Positions 1-18,024 are shown, numbered from the stretch's first letter. The stretch: DNA of 18,024 nt from an uncultured archaeon (GCA_964486045.1 CAZALK010000031.1:1-18024), one strand, 5' to 3'. The notes: generated by a model from the letters alone, not told the origin. Numbers and translations: made by a program.

Positions 1-3000
1 AAAAAGCAAGCAAAAAAACCAGCGGAAAAATCTGAAAAAAAAATTTCTTCTGAAAGTAAAAAGGTTGTTAAAAAAATACCCAGTCAGAAAAAAAGGGAGA
101 AATCTAATGAAAAAAAGGATGAACTTGTAAAAAAGGAAATACAGGTACAAAAACCAGCATCAAAAAGCAAGGTTATAGCTCAACATCGTCAAAAAAAAAA
201 CCAGAAAATTCAAAAAAATATAGAAATGAAAAAAGAGTTACAGCAGAGATACCGTCAGGAAACAGGTAAAAGACCTCTTTATGCTAAAAAAGAAACCAAA
301 GAATTTTTAAAATGGTTGGAGAAACAAAAGAATTTAGCTCAAAAGAAGAAGGTGAAAAAAGAAATTGAAAAATCAAAAGAAAACTGGGAAGTTCTACTAG
401 AGAATTGGATTCAACAAGCTAATGAAGATGATATTTCAGGGGAAAACAAAAAAGAATTGATAGATATAATTCAGAAATATCGTTACTATAGACTGTTATA
501 CGAGAAATTAATTAAATTATTGAATAAAGCAAACCCTACAAATGACGACATTGAAATAATTGAGAATTTAAGTAAAAAGCTTGAAAAAATGACTAATATC
601 CAAGAAGAAATGTTTAAAAACCTGAGCGCTTTTCAAACATTTTATAATAATAAAATTAGGTGGTTTAAACATGAAATTCTTGCTGAAAAACTAAGATTCA
701 CCACGCATCTAACTCAAAAATTAAAGAAACTTAAAGAAACTGAAAAAAGAGGAAAAAATGAAAATCTATCCTTGGTCAGTAAAGACTGGAAGGAATTATT
801 AAGACATAAGCTAACATCTATAGAAGAATTAAGTGAAGAGTCTAAATCACAATTGAACCAAATAATACGAAAAAAAGACCTTACTGACAAAGATATAAAA
901 ATTATAGCTTCAATTTTGAAAAAACTTCATATTAATCAATTAATCGGAATTTTTGGAGATGCATTTGAAAAGCATACTAAAAACTACGTAAAATGGGGCT
1001 GGGATTATTATGAATATATAAAAAAAAATATGTTAATAGCATATTTCAATAAACTTGAATATAGAATTACAGAAATTTTAAAGCAAAATCTATATAAAAT
1101 TGGAGAATTGAGTTTGAATGAAAAATCTAAGATTATTAAGATTATTCAGAATGAAAACTTTGATGAAGAAAATAAAGCAACTCTAACTAATATATTAAAT
1201 AATCTAAGCATAGAAGATTTTAATTCTTTATTGGGAAAGGATTTTAAACCAGAAAAGAAAAGCAAAATCAAAATACCTAATTTTAAGCAAAAAGTAATGG
1301 GATTTCTTGATGAATTGATTAGCAAGATTAATGGCACAGTTAAGCAAAAAGATTTTTTAGGTTTAAAAGCCTCAACCGCTCTTAATGGCCTTATAATGAG
1401 AGCTAACTGTTCTGAAATAATTATCCCTAGTTACGCTAACCTTAAAATAATTGCAGGAGCTATTGTATACGCCATAATTCAATCAGAAAAAGACATTCCT
1501 AGACTTACTACCGGTAAAGAAATAATGGAAAAACTGAATATAAAACAAGGAAGTGTGCACGATTATTACCACATCCATTTGAAACATTTATATCCAAGAG
1601 CGAAAAAACAAAGTCAGATAGATAAAGAGATTAACAAATTGAAAAATATAAAATACTCAAAACATTATTTTACGAGTATTAGAGGAATCCAAAGGATAAG
1701 AGAAATCATTTCTCTTTGTTTTTTTGATATATTAGTCAAAAGTGAGGTTGCAACAAAAGATCTTGTGTCTTACTTAAAAAACATAATAAAGAAGAAGACT
1801 AAACTTCCTATACAATTAACTCATGATGATATTTTAATTCTACAAAAACTAAGTAAACATCCCGATTTTGATGATTATTTTTCTGATTTAGGTGAGATTG
1901 TTAAATATTTAATTACTTCCAGTAGAATGCATAAAAAGATAGGCGCTCATTTAATAATCTCTTATACAGCGAAAACATTGATGGAAAAAGGTGTTAATTT
2001 ATTTCAAACTGCAAAAACTTTTCATATTACTCTTATAAATATATTTGATTGTTTGAAAGAAAATTACAATGATTTTTTACCAACGCGTTCATCTATTGAG
2101 TTTACAACCATAGAAAAGAGGGAGCGCTGGGCGATTGACAGAGAAAGAGCATATATAATTGGGAGTAGAATAAAACTATTTATAATTAAAAATATTTATA
2201 GCGGAAAATACAATAAAAATGGAAAAACCCAATGTTCAGAATGTAATAAAGAAGGATTTACAATAAATACAGACATTTCAAGGCTAGAGGCCATGGAATT
2301 TAATCATATAAGTGGAAATAAAATTTATGAATACACCAAAAAAGTCTTTTATGATTTATTTACTCAAAGCTATGGAGATCCTGATTTTTTAGAGAAACTA
2401 ATTTTTAAAATGGAATCCGAAAAAGTTGAATTAATATGTAGAAATCATCATAATTTACATCATAGTAAATATTTTAAATATTTTAAATATCTTATCAACT
2501 GGAATGAAATGTTTTCATTATCGCCTGTATTAATTCATTTAGTTATCAGAATTGCTGTAAACAGTTTTCATTTAACTAAAAACTTCCCAAAACAATTGAA
2601 AAGCAATATTCGGAGATCTATTATAATCGATTTAAAAAGGAGATATATAATAAATACATTATATTCTGGAAAATGCCCAATTTGTGAAGAATTTAATGCA
2701 AAAGATCATATATCTGTATTTCAAGGACATCATGAAATTCATGGTATCAAGAAACGAGAAGTTTCTAATTTGTTCTATATCGGTCTTTCTTGTTCTGAGA
2801 TTGTAAAAATTTTAAAAGCAGAACATGTAGGTTTTATATGCGGAAATTGCCATACTGTTATTCAATATGTCAGAGATGAATCTATTTTAAATCAAATTTA
2901 TGATAATAAAGAAATTGTTAATAAAATTATTGCTGATTATAAACAAGTTCACAGAAAATTTAAAACCATAAATGATGAAAAATCATTAATTAAAGATCCT

Positions 3001-3291
3001 TTAAAGAAGGCGCCTTTGATTAATGACAACTTTATCAAATACTTATTTTCAATTAATGAAACTTCTAAATCTGAACGGGAAATTAATGCTAATGTTTTAT
3101 CAAGATACTTAGGAGTATCTACCGGCGCTGTACGCCATTTTCTTTATGATAGAGGTGATCTCCTCAAACCATTTATTAAAGTTGTTCAGGATAAACCGAA
3201 GACTCTAAAGCGATATTCTTTAACGGATTATGGTAAAAAAGCGATTGCTTTATTACAGCATTTTAGAGATTATTACAGATCATCACAATAA
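1..3291 (+). CDS. Large multidomain putative nucleic-acid-binding protein/nuclease, 5'-partial: K/E-rich N-terminus, helical repeats, TFIIB-like cyclin/HTH segment, two tandem HNH-like Zn-binding domains, C-terminal winged helix
   Basis: Frame +1 is open from base 1 (KKQAKKPAEKSEKK...) through the listed ATG at 226 to TAA at 3291, so the true start probably lies upstream of the window. Motifs: CSEC...MEFNH...LICRNHH (2233-2451); CPIC...FQGHH...FICGNCH (2674-2853); NLKIIAGAIVYA...TGKEIMEKLNIKQGSV (about 1438-1560); INANVLSRYLGVSTGAV...YSLTDYGK (about 3082-3240). Confidence 0.7.
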   Translation, partial: KKQAKKPAEKSEKKISSESKKVVKKIPSQKKREKSNEKKDELVKKEIQVQKPASKSKVIAQHRQKKNQKIQKNIEMKKELQQRYRQETGKRPLYAKKETKEFLKWLEKQKNLAQKKKVKKEIEKSKENWEVLLENWIQQANEDDISGENKKELIDIIQKYRYYRLLYEKLIKLLNKANPTNDDIEIIENLSKKLEKMTNIQEEMFKNLSAFQTFYNNKIRWFKHEILAEKLRFTTHLTQKLKKLKETEKRGKNENLSLVSKDWKELLRHKLTSIEELSEESKSQLNQIIRKKDLTDKDIKIIASILKKLHINQLIGIFGDAFEKHTKNYVKWGWDYYEYIKKNMLIAYFNKLEYRITEILKQNLYKIGELSLNEKSKIIKIIQNENFDEENKATLTNILNNLSIEDFNSLLGKDFKPEKKSKIKIPNFKQKVMGFLDELISKINGTVKQKDFLGLKASTALNGLIMRANCSEIIIPSYANLKIIAGAIVYAIIQSEKDIPRLTTGKEIMEKLNIKQGSVHDYYHIHLKHLYPRAKKQSQIDKEINKLKNIKYSKHYFTSIRGIQRIREIISLCFFDILVKSEVATKDLVSYLKNIIKKKTKLPIQLTHDDILILQKLSKHPDFDDYFSDLGEIVKYLITSSRMHKKIGAHLIISYTAKTLMEKGVNLFQTAKTFHITLINIFDCLKENYNDFLPTRSSIEFTTIEKRERWAIDRERAYIIGSRIKLFIIKNIYSGKYNKNGKTQCSECNKEGFTINTDISRLEAMEFNHISGNKIYEYTKKVFYDLFTQSYGDPDFLEKLIFKMESEKVELICRNHHNLHHSKYFKYFKYLINWNEMFSLSPVLIHLVIRIAVNSFHLTKNFPKQLKSNIRRSIIIDLKRRYIINTLYSGKCPICEEFNAKDHISVFQGHHEIHGIKKREVSNLFYIGLSCSEIVKILKAEHVGFICGNCHTVIQYVRDESILNQIYDNKEIVNKIIADYKQVHRKFKTINDEKSLIKDPLKKAPLINDNFIKYLFSINETSKSEREINANVLSRYLGVSTGAVRHFLYDRGDLLKPFIKVVQDKPKTLKRYSLTDYGKKAIALLQHFRDYYRSSQ
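787..1245 (+). repeat. Two diverged 60-aa helical repeats within the large ORF (787-966 and 1066-1245); weaker partial copy from about 385
   Basis: Gapless manual alignment of WKELLRHKLTSIEELSEESKSQ...IFGDAF with ITEILKQNLYKIGELSLNEKSK...LLGKDF gives 17/60 identities with a conserved hydrophobic pattern. Confidence 0.65.
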
Positions 3292-3303: not shown

Positions 3304-3705
3304 TTACTCTTGTGGGATTAAATCTCTGCTAGCAATAATATTAATTTCCAGACCTAACACATTTTCAATCATGACATCTCCCATTTTAATTGGAGCTTTT
3401 ACTTTCATTTTTGCTATTTCTCTTAAAGCTGCGGTTAATTTTTCTTTGGGAATAGCACTATTAGACCTGACTGGTATCAAGGGTAAAAATCCATTTTCCA
3501 CCCGCATTGTTGTCGTTAGAATCCGTTTTGGGGAAATAAATTCATCTCGCGAATACACTTCACCTCTCTTACAAGAATGACCCTCAATTATTAACTCTCC
3601 GTTCACATTTTCAACATGGACAAGACAGCCTGTAGGACACACTATACAACGGATTTCTTTACTTCCTTCTGGAATTTCTGACTCTGACATTTTCTTTACC
3701 ATCAA
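3304..3705 (-). CDS. DUF1667-family small Cys-rich (putative Fe-S/Zn) protein, third gene of the GlpA-like operon
   Basis: CIVCPTGC...GHSCKRG and P-x-R-x-LTTT motifs; lies 2 nt downstream of the oxidoreductase stop. The listed start is TTG; ATG at 3702 or 3690 is equally plausible. Confidence 0.85.
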   Translation of the reverse strand: MMVKKMSESEIPEGSKEIRCIVCPTGCLVHVENVNGELIIEGHSCKRGEVYSRDEFISPKRILTTTMRVENGFLPLIPVRSNSAIPKEKLTAALREIAKMKVKAPIKMGDVMIENVLGLEINIIASRDLIPQE

Positions 3706-3707
3706 AC

Positions 3708-5006
3708 TTAATTTTCTTCAATTAAAACCTCTGGACGAGGTATAACCTCTATTTCTATATTTTTGCAACCAGGATCGATTTGTAATTCGCTTAAATTTAA
3801 TTTTAATTCAAGCATCTCACTGGGGATCACATATCTTCTCTTCTTTTTATATAAAACCTTGTTATTCTCATCTTTAAACTGAATTTGAATTCTTCTGTCT
3901 GGTCTTTTTACTCGGAATGTGAATATTATATCCTTTGATAAATTTGCTTTATTTATTAAATCGGGTTTTACGTACTTAACATTTTCTCCTGGGTGGCATT
4001 TTATCTGCGCTTTTTTTCCTATTTCATTACTATATCGTTCTTTAACATATTCAATGGCATTAAATCCCGCTCGTTTTGCTTCAGCAGTCACGAGGTCAAC
4101 TAGATCATGAACTTGCAATACATTACCACAAGCAAATATTCCCTCTATAGTAGTCTCCAAGTTATTATCCACAACGGGACCACCCATATCCGAAATCTTA
4201 GCGCCTGCTTCTCGTGTTAACTCATTTTCGGGGATCAAGCCTACAGATAATAATAGAGTATCACATTCAATAAATTTCTCAGAGCCTATTACTCGATCGA
4301 AGTTGCGATCGACCTTACTCACGGTTAAACCTTTCAGCCGGTCCACCCCATGAATTTTAGTTACAGTATAGCTAGTGATAAGCGGAATTCCAAAATCCTC
4401 TAAGCATTGTACTTGATTTCTAATTAAGCCACTTACGTAGGGGAGAATTTCAACAACAGCTTTTACTTGACATCCTTCCCATGTTAAGCGTCGAGCCATT
4501 ATCATACCAATATCTCCACTCCCCAGGATTACATAGGATCTCCCCGGGAGATAACCTTCAATATTTACGAATCTCTGGGCTTGTCCAGCAGTATATATTC
4601 CGGCAGGACGAAAACCAGGCATATTAATTGCTCCTCGTGTTCTTTCACGGCACCCCATAGCAAGTATGATTGCTTTAGCTTTGATTTCAATAAGCCCTTC
4701 TTTATTATTTACAGCATATACTGTCTTATCCGGTGTTACCTCAATTACCATTGTATCTAATTTATATGAGATTTTCAGCTCTTTAACTTGATTAATGAAT
4801 CTTTGAACATATTCTGGTCCCGTTAATTCTTCTTCAAATTCATGTAGTCCAAATCCATTATGGATGCACTGAAGGGTGATTCCTCCTAATTCCTTATCGC
4901 GCTCCAAAATTACAACATTTAATTCGGCTTTTTTCACAACAATAGAAGCAGCTAGACCCGCAGAACCCCCTCCAATCACTAGAACATCTACTTGGTAACT
5001 TTTCAT
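3708..5006 (-). CDS. NAD(P)/FAD-dependent oxidoreductase (pyridine nucleotide-disulfide oxidoreductase-like partner of GlpA-like flavoprotein)
   Basis: N-terminal GGGSAG FAD motif, LGGITLQCIHNGFG, LAMGCRER, second Rossmann motif ILGSGDIG, GIFACGN; ATGA overlap with the upstream gene at 5003-5006. Confidence 0.9.
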   Translation of the reverse strand: MKSYQVDVLVIGGGSAGLAASIVVKKAELNVVILERDKELGGITLQCIHNGFGLHEFEEELTGPEYVQRFINQVKELKISYKLDTMVIEVTPDKTVYAVNNKEGLIEIKAKAIILAMGCRERTRGAINMPGFRPAGIYTAGQAQRFVNIEGYLPGRSYVILGSGDIGMIMARRLTWEGCQVKAVVEILPYVSGLIRNQVQCLEDFGIPLITSYTVTKIHGVDRLKGLTVSKVDRNFDRVIGSEKFIECDTLLLSVGLIPENELTREAGAKISDMGGPVVDNNLETTIEGIFACGNVLQVHDLVDLVTAEAKRAGFNAIEYVKERYSNEIGKKAQIKCHPGENVKYVKPDLINKANLSKDIIFTFRVKRPDRRIQIQFKDENNKVLYKKKRRYVIPSEMLELKLNLSELQIDPGCKNIEIEVIPRPEVLIEEN

Positions 5007-6475
5007 TCTTGAATAGCACCTCCAGGAGCATCTCTTAAAGTAATATCTTTAGTTTTTCCAATGAGAATATTCGTGTCTTCCCCTCTTTTTGTTATTTCTT
5101 CATATCTCAAACCTAACTCCCTTGCTAGTATCTCAATAACGCGTGGGCGACAAAAACCTCCTTGGCATCTACCCATACCTGGCCTACAACGGAACTTAAT
5201 TCCATCAACAGTCTTAGCCCCAACAGGAGCGTGGATTGCATCAATTATTTCTTTTTCAGGGATTGTTTCACAACGGCAAATAATTTTTCCCCAAGCAGGG
5301 TTATCATGTATTTTAGCATCAAGTTCTTCTTTAGTGAAATCTTTGAAGCGATCTGGTTTAGGACGAATAGGATTATAATCCTGGCGTTTTTCTAATCTTA
5401 TTCCTAACAATTCGAGATAATCAACGACTTTTTCAGCTATAGCAAAGGTTGACGTTAACCCAGGTGATAAAATACCTGCAACATTAATGAAACCAAAAAC
5501 ATCTGTATTGTCTATGATAAAGTCATATGTATCTGGAACAGCTCTAAGACCAGCAAAATTTCTAATAGAACTCCTCAAAGGTAGAGTGGGAACTAAAATT
5601 TTACCACCCTCCAAAATTTCTTTTAACCCGGCTGTAGATGTTGACAAATCTTCACGATCAGTTATGTTTTGGGCATTAGGGCCAATAAAAGTATTTCCAT
5701 GTAGTGTAGGGCAGACCAATATTCCCTTTGAGACTTTGGTAGCCATAGGGAAAAGCACCTTGTTTAGCTGGATAGCATTTCTATCAAATAATATATATTC
5801 ACCCTTCCGGGGTAATATACTGAAATAATCTAATCCTAGCATTTTTGAGATTTGTGAAGCGTATAGTCCTGCTGCATTAATTAAATATCTTCCTTGGAAC
5901 TCTCCTTCAGAAGTTTTTAAAGTAAATAAATAATCTTGATGTTTGATTTTTATAACTTCATGATTCCTGAAAAACCGAACTCCATTAAGAGCAGCGTTTT
6001 CTGCTAAAGCAAATGTTAATTCGTAAGGACTTGCAATGCCTGCAGAGGGTGCGTGCAAAACACCAACAACATCTTTAGTTAAACTTGGTTCCATCTCCAA
6101 TATTATATCTTTATCTAAGATTAATTCTAGATCGGGTATTCCATCTTCAATGCCTTTTTTCCTTACTTCATCTAATTTTTTAATCTGATCATCTTCTAAA
6201 GCAACTACAAAAGACCCGATTCGTTTAAATGGGAAGTTCAACTCCTTTACTGCTTGGGTATAAAGGTTATTTCCTTTGATACAGAGGTGGCGTTTAATAA
6301 ATTCTCTAGGAGAAGAATAACCAGCATGTATAACCCCAGAGTTAGCTTTAGTGGTCCCTGAAGCAATCTCTGCTTCTTTTTCTATCACACATATCTTTAG
6401 ATCGTACTTTGAAAGAGTTCGAGCTATACAGCAACCAGTGACTCCACCACCTATTATGATAACATCGTAAATCAA
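5003..6475 (-). CDS. FAD-dependent oxidoreductase, GlpA/LhgO-like (probable glycerol-3-phosphate dehydrogenase subunit) with C-terminal BFD-like [2Fe-2S] domain
   Basis: IIGGGVTG, GTTKANSGVIHAG, FAGLR, SPGLTS, and C-terminal ICRCE...RCRPGMGRCQGGFC; TTG start. The substrate is inferred from family and operon context only. Confidence 0.85.
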   Translation of the reverse strand: MIYDVIIIGGGVTGCCIARTLSKYDLKICVIEKEAEIASGTTKANSGVIHAGYSSPREFIKRHLCIKGNNLYTQAVKELNFPFKRIGSFVVALEDDQIKKLDEVRKKGIEDGIPDLELILDKDIILEMEPSLTKDVVGVLHAPSAGIASPYELTFALAENAALNGVRFFRNHEVIKIKHQDYLFTLKTSEGEFQGRYLINAAGLYASQISKMLGLDYFSILPRKGEYILFDRNAIQLNKVLFPMATKVSKGILVCPTLHGNTFIGPNAQNITDREDLSTSTAGLKEILEGGKILVPTLPLRSSIRNFAGLRAVPDTYDFIIDNTDVFGFINVAGILSPGLTSTFAIAEKVVDYLELLGIRLEKRQDYNPIRPKPDRFKDFTKEELDAKIHDNPAWGKIICRCETIPEKEIIDAIHAPVGAKTVDGIKFRCRPGMGRCQGGFCRPRVIEILARELGLRYEEITKRGEDTNILIGKTKDITLRDAPGGAIQE

Positions 6476-7077: not shown

Positions 7078-7470
7078 CTATTTTTTGTTATCTTCTAATG
7101 ATTTCTTAATTGAAGTAGTGAAAGTATCGAAAAGACCTACATTACTATCCCATTTCTTTAACATTTCTTCTGGGTATAATGCAAAAAAATTCTCCGAAAC
7201 ATCATCTAATTCTTTTTGAACTTTTTTTATCTTTATCTTGCTTGAGGAATTCGCAACAAAAATAAAATGGTTTTTTTTTAATATTGAAAAACGAAGATTA
7301 CTTAACTCGAAATTCGAAATCCCACCTTCAGTAAGTTTTTCTGCAAATGTATTTAGAGCACTCATGAGAGCTCCAAATAGTTGAGGATTAACTCTTGGAT
7401 CTATCACACGGCTATAGACAGTCGTGCCACTCTCAGTTAAAATCCATAAATCTCTTATTAGTTTTGCCAT
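7078..7470 (-). CDS. Stand-alone longin-like domain protein (Asgard eukaryotic-signature type)
   Basis: 130 aa with longin-like order beta-beta-alpha-beta-beta-beta-alpha-alpha: IRDLWILTESGTTVYSR hairpin, QLFGALMSALNTFA helix, FIFVA strand, L..V...F...Y helix, terminal F..F...I helix. Confidence 0.75.
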   Translation of the reverse strand: MAKLIRDLWILTESGTTVYSRVIDPRVNPQLFGALMSALNTFAEKLTEGGISNFELSNLRFSILKKNHFIFVANSSSKIKIKKVQKELDDVSENFFALYPEEMLKKWDSNVGLFDTFTTSIKKSLEDNKK

Positions 7471-11042: not shown

Positions 11043-11972
11043 ATGAGCTATAAGGATCGCTTACGATCAACCAAAGCACCGGAAGAGGATGCCAGTAATA
11101 AAACTGAACCTCAATGTTGCAGTAATCCATGTATTGAGCCACGAGAAGGTGATGCTGTTTGTACAAGTTGCGGTATGATTCTTGGACGAAATTTAGTAGG
11201 AAATGAACGTCGCGCATATACTGTAGAAGAAGTCAATAAAAGACGTAGAACAGAACCGAGATGGAGGGAGTTTGGACCTCGTACTATGCTCCCGAATTCA
11301 AAGATTGACTCTAAAGGAAGATTGATAAACGCGCGCGGCAAAACGTTATTCTCTCGCCTATCCAAGATTCAGAATTCATTAATCTCAAGCATCGAAAGAA
11401 ATTTCTGGGAAGCCAAGCCCAAACTTAAAATGCTAACCAGCAAGATGAATATCCCAGAGTACATAAAAGAAACCGCTTGGAAAATCTACAGTGTCGTAGC
11501 CAAGAAAAAGCTAACGATGGGGAGGAGCATTGACGGTTTCATTGCAGCCTCTTTATACGCTGCAATCCGCGTACATGAGTTCCCCAGATTGCTTGAGGAA
11601 GTTTGTGAAGCCTCCATGACACCTCGAAGAACAGTTCACCGTTCTTTAGGTATGATTGTCAAAGAGGTTTTACCAGAGCTTAGCCTTAAGTACAAACCGA
11701 TTACCGCAGAGCAATTAGTATTTCGGTTCGGGAACGACCTAGGATTACCAATGGAAACTCAGAAAGTAGCAATAAACATGCTTGTAGAGGCTTCCAGAAA
11801 TGGATTATTACGTACTGGCAAAGACCCAAAAGGATTAGCAGCAAGCGTTATTTACATGGCAGCAAAAGCTGGAAACCACCGGAAAACTCAAGCTGAAGTA
11901 TCAGAAGTAGCCAAAGTCACTGAAGTCACACTTAGATCAAGATCTAAGCAAATAAGAAACAAACTTCGATGA
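11043..11972 (+). CDS. tfb: Transcription initiation factor IIB (archaeal TFB)
   Basis: N-terminal Zn ribbon (CCSNPC...VCTSCG), B-reader-like ERRAY...RRRTEP, and two cyclin repeats (GRSIDGFIAASLYAAIR...PRLLEEV; GKDPKGLAASVIYMAA...TQAEVSEVAKVTEVTLRSR). Confidence 0.96.
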   Translation: MSYKDRLRSTKAPEEDASNKTEPQCCSNPCIEPREGDAVCTSCGMILGRNLVGNERRAYTVEEVNKRRRTEPRWREFGPRTMLPNSKIDSKGRLINARGKTLFSRLSKIQNSLISSIERNFWEAKPKLKMLTSKMNIPEYIKETAWKIYSVVAKKKLTMGRSIDGFIAASLYAAIRVHEFPRLLEEVCEASMTPRRTVHRSLGMIVKEVLPELSLKYKPITAEQLVFRFGNDLGLPMETQKVAINMLVEASRNGLLRTGKDPKGLAASVIYMAAKAGNHRKTQAEVSEVAKVTEVTLRSRSKQIRNKLR

Positions 11973-12124: not shown

Positions 12125-13339
12125 TTGGATTTTTTCAGTATAGTAATCGCAATATTAAGCATCTTAATAGGGTATTTTCTAGGTGGGATCTTACCTGCCT
12201 TTATATTTGGCAAATTAAAAGGTATTGATATCCGAGAAGAAGGAACAAAAAATGCAGGAACATCAAATGCATTTAAAGTCTTAGGGCTTACATATGCTAT
12301 ACCTACGGCATTATATGATACCTTGAAAGGATTATTAGCTATGTTAATTGCTTTTTCATTAGGAGCTGATCATATCTTTATACAAATAAGTGGATTAGCA
12401 GCCATCATCGGCCACGTCTTCCCTTTTTATTTAGATTTTCGGGGAGGACAAGGAAATGCAACAGCAACCGGAATTCTCCTTTTTTATCTTGTGAATTATT
12501 TAACGGTTAGTATGAGTCAGTTTTGGCAATTTTTCTATGTGATTATACTTTTGATAGTTTTAGTAATTATCTTTTCGTATATATCTAAAGCCGGTAGTCT
12601 ACTGCCTATGGTTTTATTTCCCTTGCTGGGTTATTCTGTATTTAATATCTACCCTACAAGCGGTTTTAATCTCTTTTTTGTCATAATCCTTGTTCATATT
12701 GCTACTATAGGGATGTACAAGGTAATTACAGAGAAAAAATTAGTAATCACTGATGAAGAATTTTTATCGAGTTGGTGGAGAGTTGCCATACGCCCCGTTT
12801 CGTTGTTGTTTCTTATTTTTTATTTAATTGATCTTCAACTTGGTTTAATTGTTATAGGAATAGTAAGTCTATGTTTTATTGGTCTAGATATTTTCAGATT
12901 TCTTCATAAGGGTACGAATATATTATTAACTGAAAAAACTACAGCGATTTTCAGAAAAGGAGAAGAGAAAAAATTCTCAACGATGACAATATTTTTAATT
13001 TCGACATTTATCATAGTGCTTATTTTTGATTTAGAGATCGCAATAACGTCGTTAATTTTCCTAATATTTGGAGACATGTTTGGTAAAATATTCGGATTGG
13101 CTTATGGGCGACATAAGATATTTGAAAAAACTCTTGAAGGCACTCTCGCTTATTTTGGATCTGTTATTATTTTTGCGTATATTCTGTATACTGGGCTAGA
13201 TGTGCCCTTACTCATACTTATTTCTGGTGGGATTGCCGCTCCATTAATCGAGTTATTACCTATAGGAATAAACGATAATTTTACTGTCCCTATAATAAGT
13301 GGTGCAGTTATGACAGCAACAAAAATATTTTTTCTTTAA
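12125..13339 (+). CDS. plsY: Fusion of PlsY-like glycerol-3-phosphate acyltransferase (N-terminal) and CTP-dependent diacylglycerol/polyprenol kinase family domain (C-terminal)
   Basis: PlsY motifs GYFLGGI...IDIREEGTKNAGTSNAFKVLG, DTLKG and GHVFPFYLDFRGGQGNAT; kinase-family motifs GDMFGKIFG...GRHK...KTLEG and DNFTVP; highly hydrophobic; TTG start with an in-frame TGA just upstream. Confidence 0.85.
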   Translation: MDFFSIVIAILSILIGYFLGGILPAFIFGKLKGIDIREEGTKNAGTSNAFKVLGLTYAIPTALYDTLKGLLAMLIAFSLGADHIFIQISGLAAIIGHVFPFYLDFRGGQGNATATGILLFYLVNYLTVSMSQFWQFFYVIILLIVLVIIFSYISKAGSLLPMVLFPLLGYSVFNIYPTSGFNLFFVIILVHIATIGMYKVITEKKLVITDEEFLSSWWRVAIRPVSLLFLIFYLIDLQLGLIVIGIVSLCFIGLDIFRFLHKGTNILLTEKTTAIFRKGEEKKFSTMTIFLISTFIIVLIFDLEIAITSLIFLIFGDMFGKIFGLAYGRHKIFEKTLEGTLAYFGSVIIFAYILYTGLDVPLLILISGGIAAPLIELLPIGINDNFTVPIISGAVMTATKIFFL

Positions 13340-16000: not shown

Positions 16001-18024
16001 CTATTTTCTACCTCTTATTTTTTCTATACGTTTTATTTCTTTTTCACTAGATTTGTAGGATTTCTTCCTAAATTTTATTATTAGCACGGTCAGTATCCCT
16101 ATTATACTACCAATACTTATCATTGTTATCGGGTTTGTTAAGAATGATATTAAATTAAAACTATCCCCAGATGGTATTTCTACAGTTATCTCTATTTGGT
16201 TGGAATTATTGAAACCCACCTCATTGTAAGACCGAATTAAGAAATAATATTCACCGCTTTCAAGAGACATGGAATAATTTAGATCGGTTATACCTGATGC
16301 TATTAATGTTACACTTGCATTGATTTCAGTAATTGTGCTATTATACATATAAATAGAGTAATTGTCAGCTCCTATAGAAATAGTCCAGTTTAATTCAAAT
16401 TGACCATCAGTGTCAGGAGAATCCGCATCAGATGACAAAATAAAAGAATCTGGTCCAAGTTGTAGGTCTACAGTTACCATTATTTGATTTGAATCTGTGA
16501 AACCCGTCTCATTATAAGACCGAATTAGGAAATAATAGGTACCACTACCAAGCGACATGGAATAGTTTAGATTTGTTAAACCAGATGTGAAATTTGTTAC
16601 ACTAACATTAATTTCTGTAATTGCGCTAGTATGCATGTAAATGGAGTAGTTATCAGCTCCTATAGAAATAGTCCAGTTTAATATAAATTGGCCATCAGTG
16701 TCAGGAAAATCCGCATCAGATGATAAAATAAATGATTGTGGAGAAAGCATATCATAACGAATAGTAACTTCGTTATAACCAAGATTTCCGAGTGTGTCGT
16801 TTGCATAAAACCTGATTGTAATTGTCCCATTAAGCAAAGCTGCTTGATTTAACGTCCCATTTGTTCCTATAAAAGTATAATTTGTTAAACCTCCATCTAT
16901 CGTGTACCAGCTGGTATTCAAATTCCCCTCTACAATTGTAAGATCAAATTGAGGGATATCATGAGTAAAGAGCTGGTTAGAAGTAGGGGAATTGACTGTT
17001 ATTATTGGTGCCAATATGTCTTTTTGAACATCAATCTCTTGATAATTCAGATTCCCTAACGTATCATTAGCATAAAATCTTATAGTAACGGTTCCATTAA
17101 GAAACGTATCCCAGACGGTTTGATTTATTGTGCCAGTTGTTCCATTAAAGATGTATTTCGTTAGTCCACCATCAAGAGTATACCAAGAAGTATTGAAATT
17201 ACCATCCGTGATTGTCACATTAAAATTTGGAGCAATGGAACTATATAATTGATTCAATGCTGGAGCATTAATTATGATAATTGGACCTGCATTATCGACA
17301 TAGATGCTCACCGATCGCGAGGTTTCATTTCCAAAAGTATCGTTCGCATAAAATGTAATAATAGTGAGTGTACCGTTAATTATTCCATCCCAGTCATTTT
17401 GGTTAAATGCCTCGTTCCCCGTGAATGTTCGATTTACTGATGATCCCGCTATAAAGTACCACATGGTATTGAGATTTCCGTCAGTTATAGTAACATCGAA
17501 TACTGGAGCTGTTCCGTTGAGCATATCATTATCACTGGGTGAGTTTATGGTGATGATTGGACCCAATTTATCAACGTAGATGCTTACCGATTGCGAGGTT
17601 TCATATCCAAAAGTGTCATTCGCATAAAACGTAATAGTAGTGAGAGTACCGTTAGTAATACCATCCCAATCGTTTTGATTAAATTGCTCATTCACCAAAA
17701 ATGTTCGATTTACTGACGATCCTGCTATAAAGTACCACATAGTATCGAGGTTTCCGTCAGTTATAGTAACATCAAATACTGGGGCTGTTGCACTGAACAC
17801 ATCGTTATCACCGGGTGAGTTAATGGTGATGGATGGACCCGATTTATCAACGTAGATGCTCACCGATTGCGAGTTTTCATTTCCTAATGAGTCGTTCGCA
17901 TAAAATGTAATTACAGTGAGTGTACCGTTAGCGATACCATCCCAATCATTTTGATTAAATTGCTCGTTTACCGTGAAGGTTCGATTTACTGACGATCCCG
18001 CGATAAAATACCACATGGTATCGA
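16001..18024 (-). CDS. Large cell-surface glycoprotein, 5'-partial: tandem Ig-like beta-sandwich repeats, two FN3-like repeats, C-terminal TM helix and basic tail
   Basis: The frame is open to the window edge (...DT-MWYF), so the listed Met is internal. Five YAND(S/T)xG units, two PDTDGQF.LNW units, many N-x-S/T sequons, TM helix at about 16075-16135 followed by KFRKK. Confidence 0.85.
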   Translation of the reverse strand, partial: DTMWYFIAGSSVNRTFTVNEQFNQNDWDGIANGTLTVITFYANDSLGNENSQSVSIYVDKSGPSITINSPGDNDVFSATAPVFDVTITDGNLDTMWYFIAGSSVNRTFLVNEQFNQNDWDGITNGTLTTITFYANDTFGYETSQSVSIYVDKLGPIITINSPSDNDMLNGTAPVFDVTITDGNLNTMWYFIAGSSVNRTFTGNEAFNQNDWDGIINGTLTIITFYANDTFGNETSRSVSIYVDNAGPIIIINAPALNQLYSSIAPNFNVTITDGNFNTSWYTLDGGLTKYIFNGTTGTINQTVWDTFLNGTVTIRFYANDTLGNLNYQEIDVQKDILAPIITVNSPTSNQLFTHDIPQFDLTIVEGNLNTSWYTIDGGLTNYTFIGTNGTLNQAALLNGTITIRFYANDTLGNLGYNEVTIRYDMLSPQSFILSSDADFPDTDGQFILNWTISIGADNYSIYMHTSAITEINVSVTNFTSGLTNLNYSMSLGSGTYYFLIRSYNETGFTDSNQIMVTVDLQLGPDSFILSSDADSPDTDGQFELNWTISIGADNYSIYMYNSTITEINASVTLIASGITDLNYSMSLESGEYYFLIRSYNEVGFNNSNQIEITVEIPSGDSFNLISFLTNPITMISIGSIIGILTVLIIKFRKKSYKSSEKEIKRIEKIRGRK
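16180..16742 (-). repeat. Two 288-bp (96-aa) FN3-like intragenic repeats
   Basis: Anchor GTCCAGTTT at 16383 and 16671; both units read SFILSSDAD.PDTDGQF.LNWTISIGADNYSIYM...YYFLIRSYNE.GF..SNQI. Confidence 0.9.
17270..18024 (-). repeat. Near-identical 276-bp (92-aa) intragenic tandem repeats, at least ~2.7 copies in window
   Basis: Anchor CCACAT recurs at 17459, 17735 and 18011 (period 276); units share TMWYFIAGSSVNRTF...FNQNDWDGI.NGTLT.ITFYAND. Confidence 0.92.

Follow-up and report, generated by a model that had tools for sequence, protein, structure and literature searches.

Homing elements that replace a gene end are regarded as a rare third class, known from yeast: the WHO elements of Torulaspora and Lachancea provide FBA1 with a new 3' half and leave the old one stranded; the halves of the gene then differ in phylogeny, and cleavage is allele-specific (PMC7282813; 10.64898/2026.08.13.744650). 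In fungal mitochondria, the mORFs (Allomyces atp6; Glomus atp6, atp9, cox2 and nad3) combine an endonuclease gene with a foreign C-terminal gene piece (PMC3630166). We analysed an 18,024-bp window, the entire contig C31 of an uncultured archaeon (genome G000; 5.18 Mb, 45 contigs), which opens with the 3' part of a giant nuclease gene (1-3291, plus strand). Its product is probably a site-specific endonuclease of an integrase-free, WHO-like homing island. A neighbouring gene of the island falls in sequence clusters that are mostly Promethearchaeota, and on this ground we treat the host as a presumed Asgard archaeon of the Lokiarchaeia type. Hereafter, "tip" denotes the nuclease part of a giant protein (residues 425-1096 here) and "carrier" its conserved N-terminal region; relatives are labelled G013, G019, G022, G043, G044, G049, G053, G062 and G068, together with one JGI contig.

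The likeness to WHO elements lies in the arrangement: a free-standing endonuclease gene directly after a working host gene, a new 3' half provided by the element, an old half stranded from a fixed site, gene halves with different phylogenies, no splicing, resistance by allelic sequence (predicted here) and nested older fragments. In contrast to WHO elements, the island sits in an archaeal chromosome; a double-HNH tip with a cyclin repeat and a winged helix stands in place of the intein-derived LAGLIDADG domain and zinc finger; many genes are targeted (here an FAD oxidoreductase gene) instead of mainly FBA1; replacement extends to a gene and a half and can also affect a 5' end; islands reach about 23 kb, with cargo and an ATPase module; and tips are interchangeable. 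Cleavage was shown for WHO, whereas for the archaeal island it is predicted. As in the mORFs, the displaced native end is closer to relatives than the inserted end is (PMC3630166); unlike the mORFs, which are small, organellar and co-transcribed with the host gene, the archaeal nuclease gene is on the opposite strand, giant and modular, and may bear cargo. As we read it, the archaeal element works like WHO elements and mORFs, yet it is not a member of the WHO family proper, from which it differs in enzyme family, host domain, size, target range and modularity.

Other described systems are more distant. T4 MobE, a free-standing phage homing endonuclease (PMC2790892), is an HNH-type nuclease encoded outside introns and inteins, which propagates itself, along with flanking DNA, through gene conversion; for the archaeal element, spread is what we propose. 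The Aloposons of Heimdallarchaeum are Asgard mobile elements with tandem proteins of 3,000-6,000 aa, a MinD/ParA-like ATPase and tRNA sites (PMC8813620). Our element resembles them as an Asgard mobile element with a giant gene and an upstream ATPase, but it has a single gene of about 1,500 aa, a protein-coding target and a HerA-like ATPase, and a scan found no tRNA gene in the window. Literature searches, with incomplete coverage, returned no description of this nuclease or island family in Asgard archaea. We know of no free-standing phage homing endonuclease that leaves a duplicated, stranded gene end; to our knowledge, insertion and cut sites are apart in those systems. The archaeal island is like those integrative elements that restore the 3' end of a coding gene in its place inside a gene end, in the displaced fragment at its far border and in its defence-like cargo. 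It differs from these in having no integrase, no identical att core and its highest divergence at the junction.

A foreign gene end and a stranded native copy

The giant gene ends 12 bp from the stop codon of a convergent DUF1667 gene (3304-3705, minus strand), the last gene of a single-copy glycerol-3-phosphate dehydrogenase-like operon. This host operon starts with a glycerol-3-phosphate oxidase/dehydrogenase-like gene (5003-6475, minus strand; match below the curated cut-off) and also contains the FAD oxidoreductase gene, which is composite. Its 5' half (codons 1-226; 4329-5006, minus strand) lies outside the island and is host-derived by the half-gene tree, whereas its 3' half (codons 227-432; 3708-4328, minus strand) and the DUF1667 gene are island-borne replacements. 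The native counterparts are stranded on contig C1, where a frameshifted copy of about 1 kb, 75% identical, spans C1:714698-715719 (oxidoreductase half at 714698-715316, DUF1667 at 715336-715719). Beyond it follow methyltransferase and radical SAM genes, the same as after DUF1667 in island-free relatives. Among 53 genus relatives, 48 have one DUF1667 match, three have none, and two, G049 and G068, have two; G000 has three. In all three of the genomes with extra matches (G000, G049, G068) the stranded copy begins at oxidoreductase codon 227. Moreover, orthologous nucleases converge on DUF1667 in G049 (60%) and in the JGI contig (77%).

We built separate trees from 660 bp before the junction and 600 bp after it. 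In the 5'-half tree, G000 groups with the native genes of G013, G062 and the JGI contig (100/100) and G049 groups with G019 (100/97). After the junction, the working 3' halves of the three nuclease carriers form one clade together with G022 (96/92), while the stranded halves join the natives, that of G049 with G019 (100/98) and that of G000 with G062 (100/99). Pairwise identities agree: relative to the empty allele of G019, the 5' half and the stranded half of G049 are each 95% identical, the working 3' half only about 78%. From these trees, the working gene end is foreign and common to three nuclease-bearing genomes, and the stranded ends belong with island-free relatives.

The junction itself is recoded. 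Island and native alleles diverge most (0.35) over the 30 bp that directly follow the junction; elsewhere the value is 0.12-0.28, and among natives 0.15. In the window this tract (4299-4328, minus strand), the predicted resistant form of the target site, differs from the stranded copy at 14 of 30 bases; it includes the Ser230 codon, which is AGT in all three island alleles and TCN in 23 of 23 other natives and three of three stranded orphans. No identical run of 7 bp was found at the oxidoreductase junction in G000 or G049, although an old att core could have drifted. That the junction is the least alike part fits selection against recutting; an integrase would leave it the most alike.

A recombinase acting in trans, or since lost, might instead have integrated the island in the manner of elements that rebuild a gene 3' end, with the giant nuclease as cargo, for example an anti-phage effector; a solo defence or restriction effector had indeed been suggested in the preliminary description. 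Five tyrosine integrases (PF00589) are encoded in G000, none of them inside the island, the cargo looks defence-like, with weak PADLOC matches (a PD-(D/E)XK protein and the ATPase) and a weak Abi_C match, and G068 keeps a stranded end without this nuclease nearby. We nevertheless consider this explanation unlikely. No identical core was found at the junctions examined, where recoding is strongest, the nuclease gene is alone in minimal islands, and nuclease clades track insertion sites, which cargo would not need to do. The giant protein matches no defence model in PADLOC (2023 library, beyond whose reach uncatalogued systems lie) and looks neither like a lone regulator nor like a defence gene.

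The window and the stranded copy are connected across a collapsed repeat. Window positions 1-1054 are 96% identical to C1:703371-702330, with 759 bases in a row identical (277-1035, plus strand), just past which the two genes part into different tips. In the probable source sequencing run, depth is about 275 on unique DNA and about double over the stretch common to C1 and C31, with variants at half depth; from this doubling, two near-identical carrier copies are collapsed in the assembly. Two strains as the source of the duplicate were rejected, each variant being at about single-copy depth (278 of 564), a better fit to two loci. Logan contigs do not span the repeat. The tip gene on C1 and smc are convergent; the stranded end of smc and its native neighbours lie on C28, and one inversion relative to the G013 gene order accounts for C28, provided that the C28 end joins the smc tip. 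Because synteny pairs the smc tip with C28, we infer that the C1 upstream DNA with the stranded oxidoreductase end belongs to the window's gene. Joined in this way, the reconstructed island would span about 15.7 kb, with the stranded copy at its far end; besides a DUF87/HerA-type ATPase it would hold an M50-peptidase-like membrane protein and cargo that weakly resembles defence genes. Within C1:702330-703371 a mis-join across the 759-bp identical tract is probable, by which the PD-(D/E)XK-like tip that targets smc follows DNA from upstream of the window's gene; a real rearrangement is also possible.

C1 also carries a second DUF1667 fragment (C1:717764-718006). A nested insertion of about 2 kb has duplicated there the final approximately 80 DUF1667 codons (C1:715475-715727 and 717771-718024; 91% identity); no nuclease was found in it, and it is possibly an older end-replacing element.

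Carriers, tips and target sites across genomes

At least five giant genes in G000 have one carrier motif and different tips: that of the window is the double HNH, two have treble-clef fingers together with a PD-(D/E)XK-like motif, and two have LAGLIDADG (one by Pfam, one by motif). The paralogue tips matched LAGLIDADG_3 (E 3e-15) and HNH_3, and the PD-(D/E)XK-like motifs were read from the sequence. Because the HNH, LAGLIDADG and PD-(D/E)XK families all serve homing endonucleases, such interchangeable tips support homing. The tip type of the window's protein is joined to any of at least three unrelated N-termini or stands without one, and of two tips that are 93% identical one has a carrier and the other does not. 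The carrier profile finds matches in 75 of the 134 genomes of the host's family and in none of the 19 from three sister families; a short motif in host proteins accounts for many of the weak matches, and a genome can have up to about ten strong ones. Matches to the tip profile occur in 55 of 161 genomes of the class, all but one in the host's family, at many unrelated sites. Among clusters at 50% identity, residues 430-1096 have 190 relatives, 58 of them at E < 1e-30.

The same anatomy recurs at other genes. Single contigs show a family gene flanked by a working end on one side and a stranded end on the other at lpdA (two genomes), a GTPase gene, a helicase gene and smc; one lpdA island, of about 4.5 kb, has the giant gene as its sole long open reading frame. 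At a ribosomal protein gene the duplicate is 5', corresponding to replacement of the 5' end. In a tree of 31 tips, every site sampled at least twice falls in one strongly supported clade, while the tips of one genome scatter. The patchy distribution, paralogue expansion and empty-site alleles that the preliminary description had asked about are thus all present, with empty alleles in most relatives. Of its suggestion of a domesticated homing endonuclease, we retain homing and abandon domestication: the family is patchy, most relatives have empty alleles, and the nuclease has moved between lineages with the gene end.

Among the loci for which upstream DNA is available, about half have a DUF87/HerA ATPase gene directly upstream, in many cases accompanied by an M50-like membrane protein or a protein of 1,270 aa. 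This arrangement, together with a conserved N-terminus and variable nuclease tips, would be expected of a polymorphic toxin or addiction nuclease in which the carrier is an export signal for a HerA/VirB4-like ATPase, the tip kills neighbours with the sensitive allele, the recoded end gives immunity and selection drives the spread. The ATPase is no more than suggestive of export, and we find this scenario improbable: there is no downstream immunity gene, with only the 12-bp gap to the convergent housekeeping gene, the reconstructed protein has no hydrophobic segment, the tip is also found behind other carriers or without any, and stranded gene ends mark insertion, which killing alone does not explain. 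For the homing island that we favour, the ATPase module is a candidate transfer device for donor DNA, but compact islands have no ATPase module. A complex prediction for the upstream ATPase with the carrier gave a score of 0.00, with no answer returned. It is possible, though doubtful, that these are self-transmitting homing islands, in which a HerA/VirB4-like ATPase and its membrane partner would move island DNA or the nuclease into neighbours and so supply the second allele, and recombination in the carrier would swap tips and retarget them to new housekeeping genes.

G000 contains eight full copies of the island-type HerA-like ATPase (on C1, C12, C14, C16, C28 and C41), followed by diverse genes, several of them giant or nuclease-like. 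Upstream of the ATPase module on C41, an open reading frame (C41:152-1651) resembles a group II intron reverse transcriptase, and the repeats of this module match the start of C20, both as read from the sequence. Two fragments of a related HNH-winged-helix tip, 96% identical, are at C18:1-716 and C2:6961-7608; on C18 acidic repeats adjoin the tip fragment directly, before a chelatase-like gene, the 5' part of which has a duplicate on C2, and related full tips lie ahead of the chelatase-like gene in four other genomes. The carrier motif of about 35 aa also terminates three host proteins of G000 (C13:46731-47123, C10:148444-149001 and C2:150495-151271), two with lysine-rich linkers and one a conserved membrane protein of about 260 aa. 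An NCBIfam scan of two of the motif-bearing host proteins gave no family match; the motif may be a small docking module.

Architecture of the giant protein

The uninterrupted frame of more than 1,090 aa noted at the outset is real: 1,096 stop-free codons, open at the contig start, have a chance probability of about 1e-38 at the composition of the window, and a frame artefact was rejected. The near-identical C1 frame extends 526 codons beyond the point where the window begins, across repeats that are acidic and rich in proline; counted from the first Met the reconstructed protein has 1,432 aa, and the frame allows at most 1,622 codons. Judged from this frame, 336-526 codons lie beyond the contig and the full protein is probably 1,430-1,620 aa. 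A probable version of the N-terminus sought in the preliminary description was in this sense recovered from upstream DNA, the pairing of that DNA with the window's gene being by synteny.

The N-terminal features described earlier were all borne out. Residues 1-125 are 36% Lys and Arg, and a helical unit of about 60 aa occurs twice, at 265-327 and 356-420 (E 2e-7). Both units are part of the conserved carrier region (residues 75-420; 223-1260, plus strand), with an ETGxRPxY motif and a helical domain, common to paralogues with differing tips. The tip (residues 425-1096) was modelled with AlphaFold2 from an alignment of 50 homologues (pLDDT 91). It contains two zinc modules of the CxxC...H...CxN(C/H)H type, as had been proposed, in strand...strand-helix order in the models and with Cys/His ligands that are nearly invariant (conserved in 44-50 of the 50 homologue rows). 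Module 1 (C745-H821; 2233-2463, plus strand) has C745/C748...N768-H769...C813-x-N-H816-H817 and His821, His769 being the putative general base and His817 the putative metal ligand. Module 2 (C892-Q955; 2674-2865, plus strand) has C892/C895...H910-H911...C947-x-N-C950-H951, with His911 and His951 present; at +4, this protein has Gln in place of the His of most homologues. Among predicted viral structures the best matches of the two-module model were HNH endonucleases (best E 4e-4), and it aligned with an archaeal HNH-repeat cluster of predicted models at TM 0.50; both modules are thus putative HNH nucleases. The winged-helix end also held: the model of residues 1004-1096, approximately, matches winged helices with Z up to 9.9, and this DtxR/MarR-like domain (3010-3282, plus strand) also gave a profile match to DtxR-family regulators.

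The segment said to resemble a TFB core proved to have one cyclin repeat in place of two. Residues 428-536, approximately (1282-1608, plus strand), form a single TFIIB/cyclin-fold repeat, presumably DNA-binding, that superposes on 1ais_B with Z 12.3 (rmsd 1.9 Å, 96 residues aligned), a value that helical folds attain more easily; Pfam TFIIB matched one of the 50 tip homologues. Only one repeat aligns, no Cys-pair zinc ribbon precedes it in the giant protein, and no sequence similarity to the window's own TFB was detectable (BLAST E 2.6). A TFB paralogue was rejected. A real TFB-like gene, with zinc ribbon and core as read from the sequence, lies at 11043-11972 and is unrelated in sequence to the cyclin repeat. 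The pairing of a TFIIB-type repeat with a winged helix is what a domesticated transcription-linked factor, in which recognition of a promoter in the TFB manner, or of TBP, is coupled to cleavage or regulation, would display, and such coupling had been suggested earlier; we found nothing beyond the one repeat that points to it. The presence in only 55 of 161 genomes at many unrelated sites, and horizontal movement together with a gene end, make such a factor highly implausible.

With the single giant protein as query, Pfam, NCBIfam, PADLOC and PDB sequence searches gave no significant match; a related-locus search with the single tip sequence found no locus, and an ESM Atlas feature search with the carrier gave no usable match. 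Scans for promoters and terminators yielded nothing informative. Elsewhere in the window, near the glycerol-3-phosphate operon, 12125-13339 encodes a 404-aa membrane protein with a putative bacterial-type glycerol-3-phosphate acyltransferase (PlsY)-like N-terminus fused to a second membrane domain. A 130-aa longin/roadblock-like protein (7078-7470) has a counterpart at the same position in the JGI contig, with a weak Fuz_longin match, and a 5'-truncated surface protein with beta-rich repeats of about 90 aa and a C-terminal membrane anchor occupies 16001-18024.

Proposed homing cycle and its consequences

In the cycle that we propose, the nuclease would recognise a long site around codons 223-236, approximately, of the FAD oxidoreductase gene in island-free alleles, with the cyclin repeat and winged helix binding DNA and one or both HNH modules cutting near codon 226/227. 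The double-strand break would be repaired by recombination from an island-bearing copy, for which the 5' half of the host gene and its old, stranded 3' end would be the homology arms. The recoded 3' half and DUF1667 would then keep the operon working without splicing and resist recutting. The anatomy of the island is much firmer than this mechanism, in which cleavage, exact target, resistance, repair route and entry of donor DNA into a recipient are all predicted steps.

Several observations weigh against the homing interpretation. The site-specific tip clades could partly stem from vertical inheritance. A stranded end was found in only four of 20 further loci with a full tip, by an automated duplicate search limited by contig ends and a 20-kb window, and none was found at TrpRS in G043; the end-replacing design is recurrent, and these loci do not imply that it is universal. 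Against solved structures (Foldseek, VIA-align), the two-module model gave nothing above Z 3.8 or below E 0.78, where large helical insertions may mask a small HNH core. The link between window and stranded copy crosses the collapsed repeat, and the assembly attaches that upstream DNA to another tip; synteny favours our pairing, and the contigs do not prove it. G022, G044 and G053 (loci L054, L039 and L046) have the AGT junction without the nuclease beside DUF1667; these are candidate resistant alleles or lost islands, and ordinary allele variation fits too. Finally, G068 has a stranded end and no such nuclease within the fetched region.

The gene-end-replacing strategy is known from yeast and fungal mitochondria; in the archaeon it is found at many genes and with interchangeable nuclease tips. 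This logic recurs in one Asgard family, with up to about ten carrier loci per genome. Housekeeping genes (smc, lpdA, the oxidoreductase) become chimeric, which may mislead marker-gene phylogenies of these genomes, and end replacement implies regular DNA exchange between cells. The family is also a natural collection of nucleases that are predicted to recognise long sites, and its cyclin-HNH-HNH-winged-helix layout is new. For each nuclease a predicted target and a predicted resistant allele can be read from the genome, which makes the claim directly testable.

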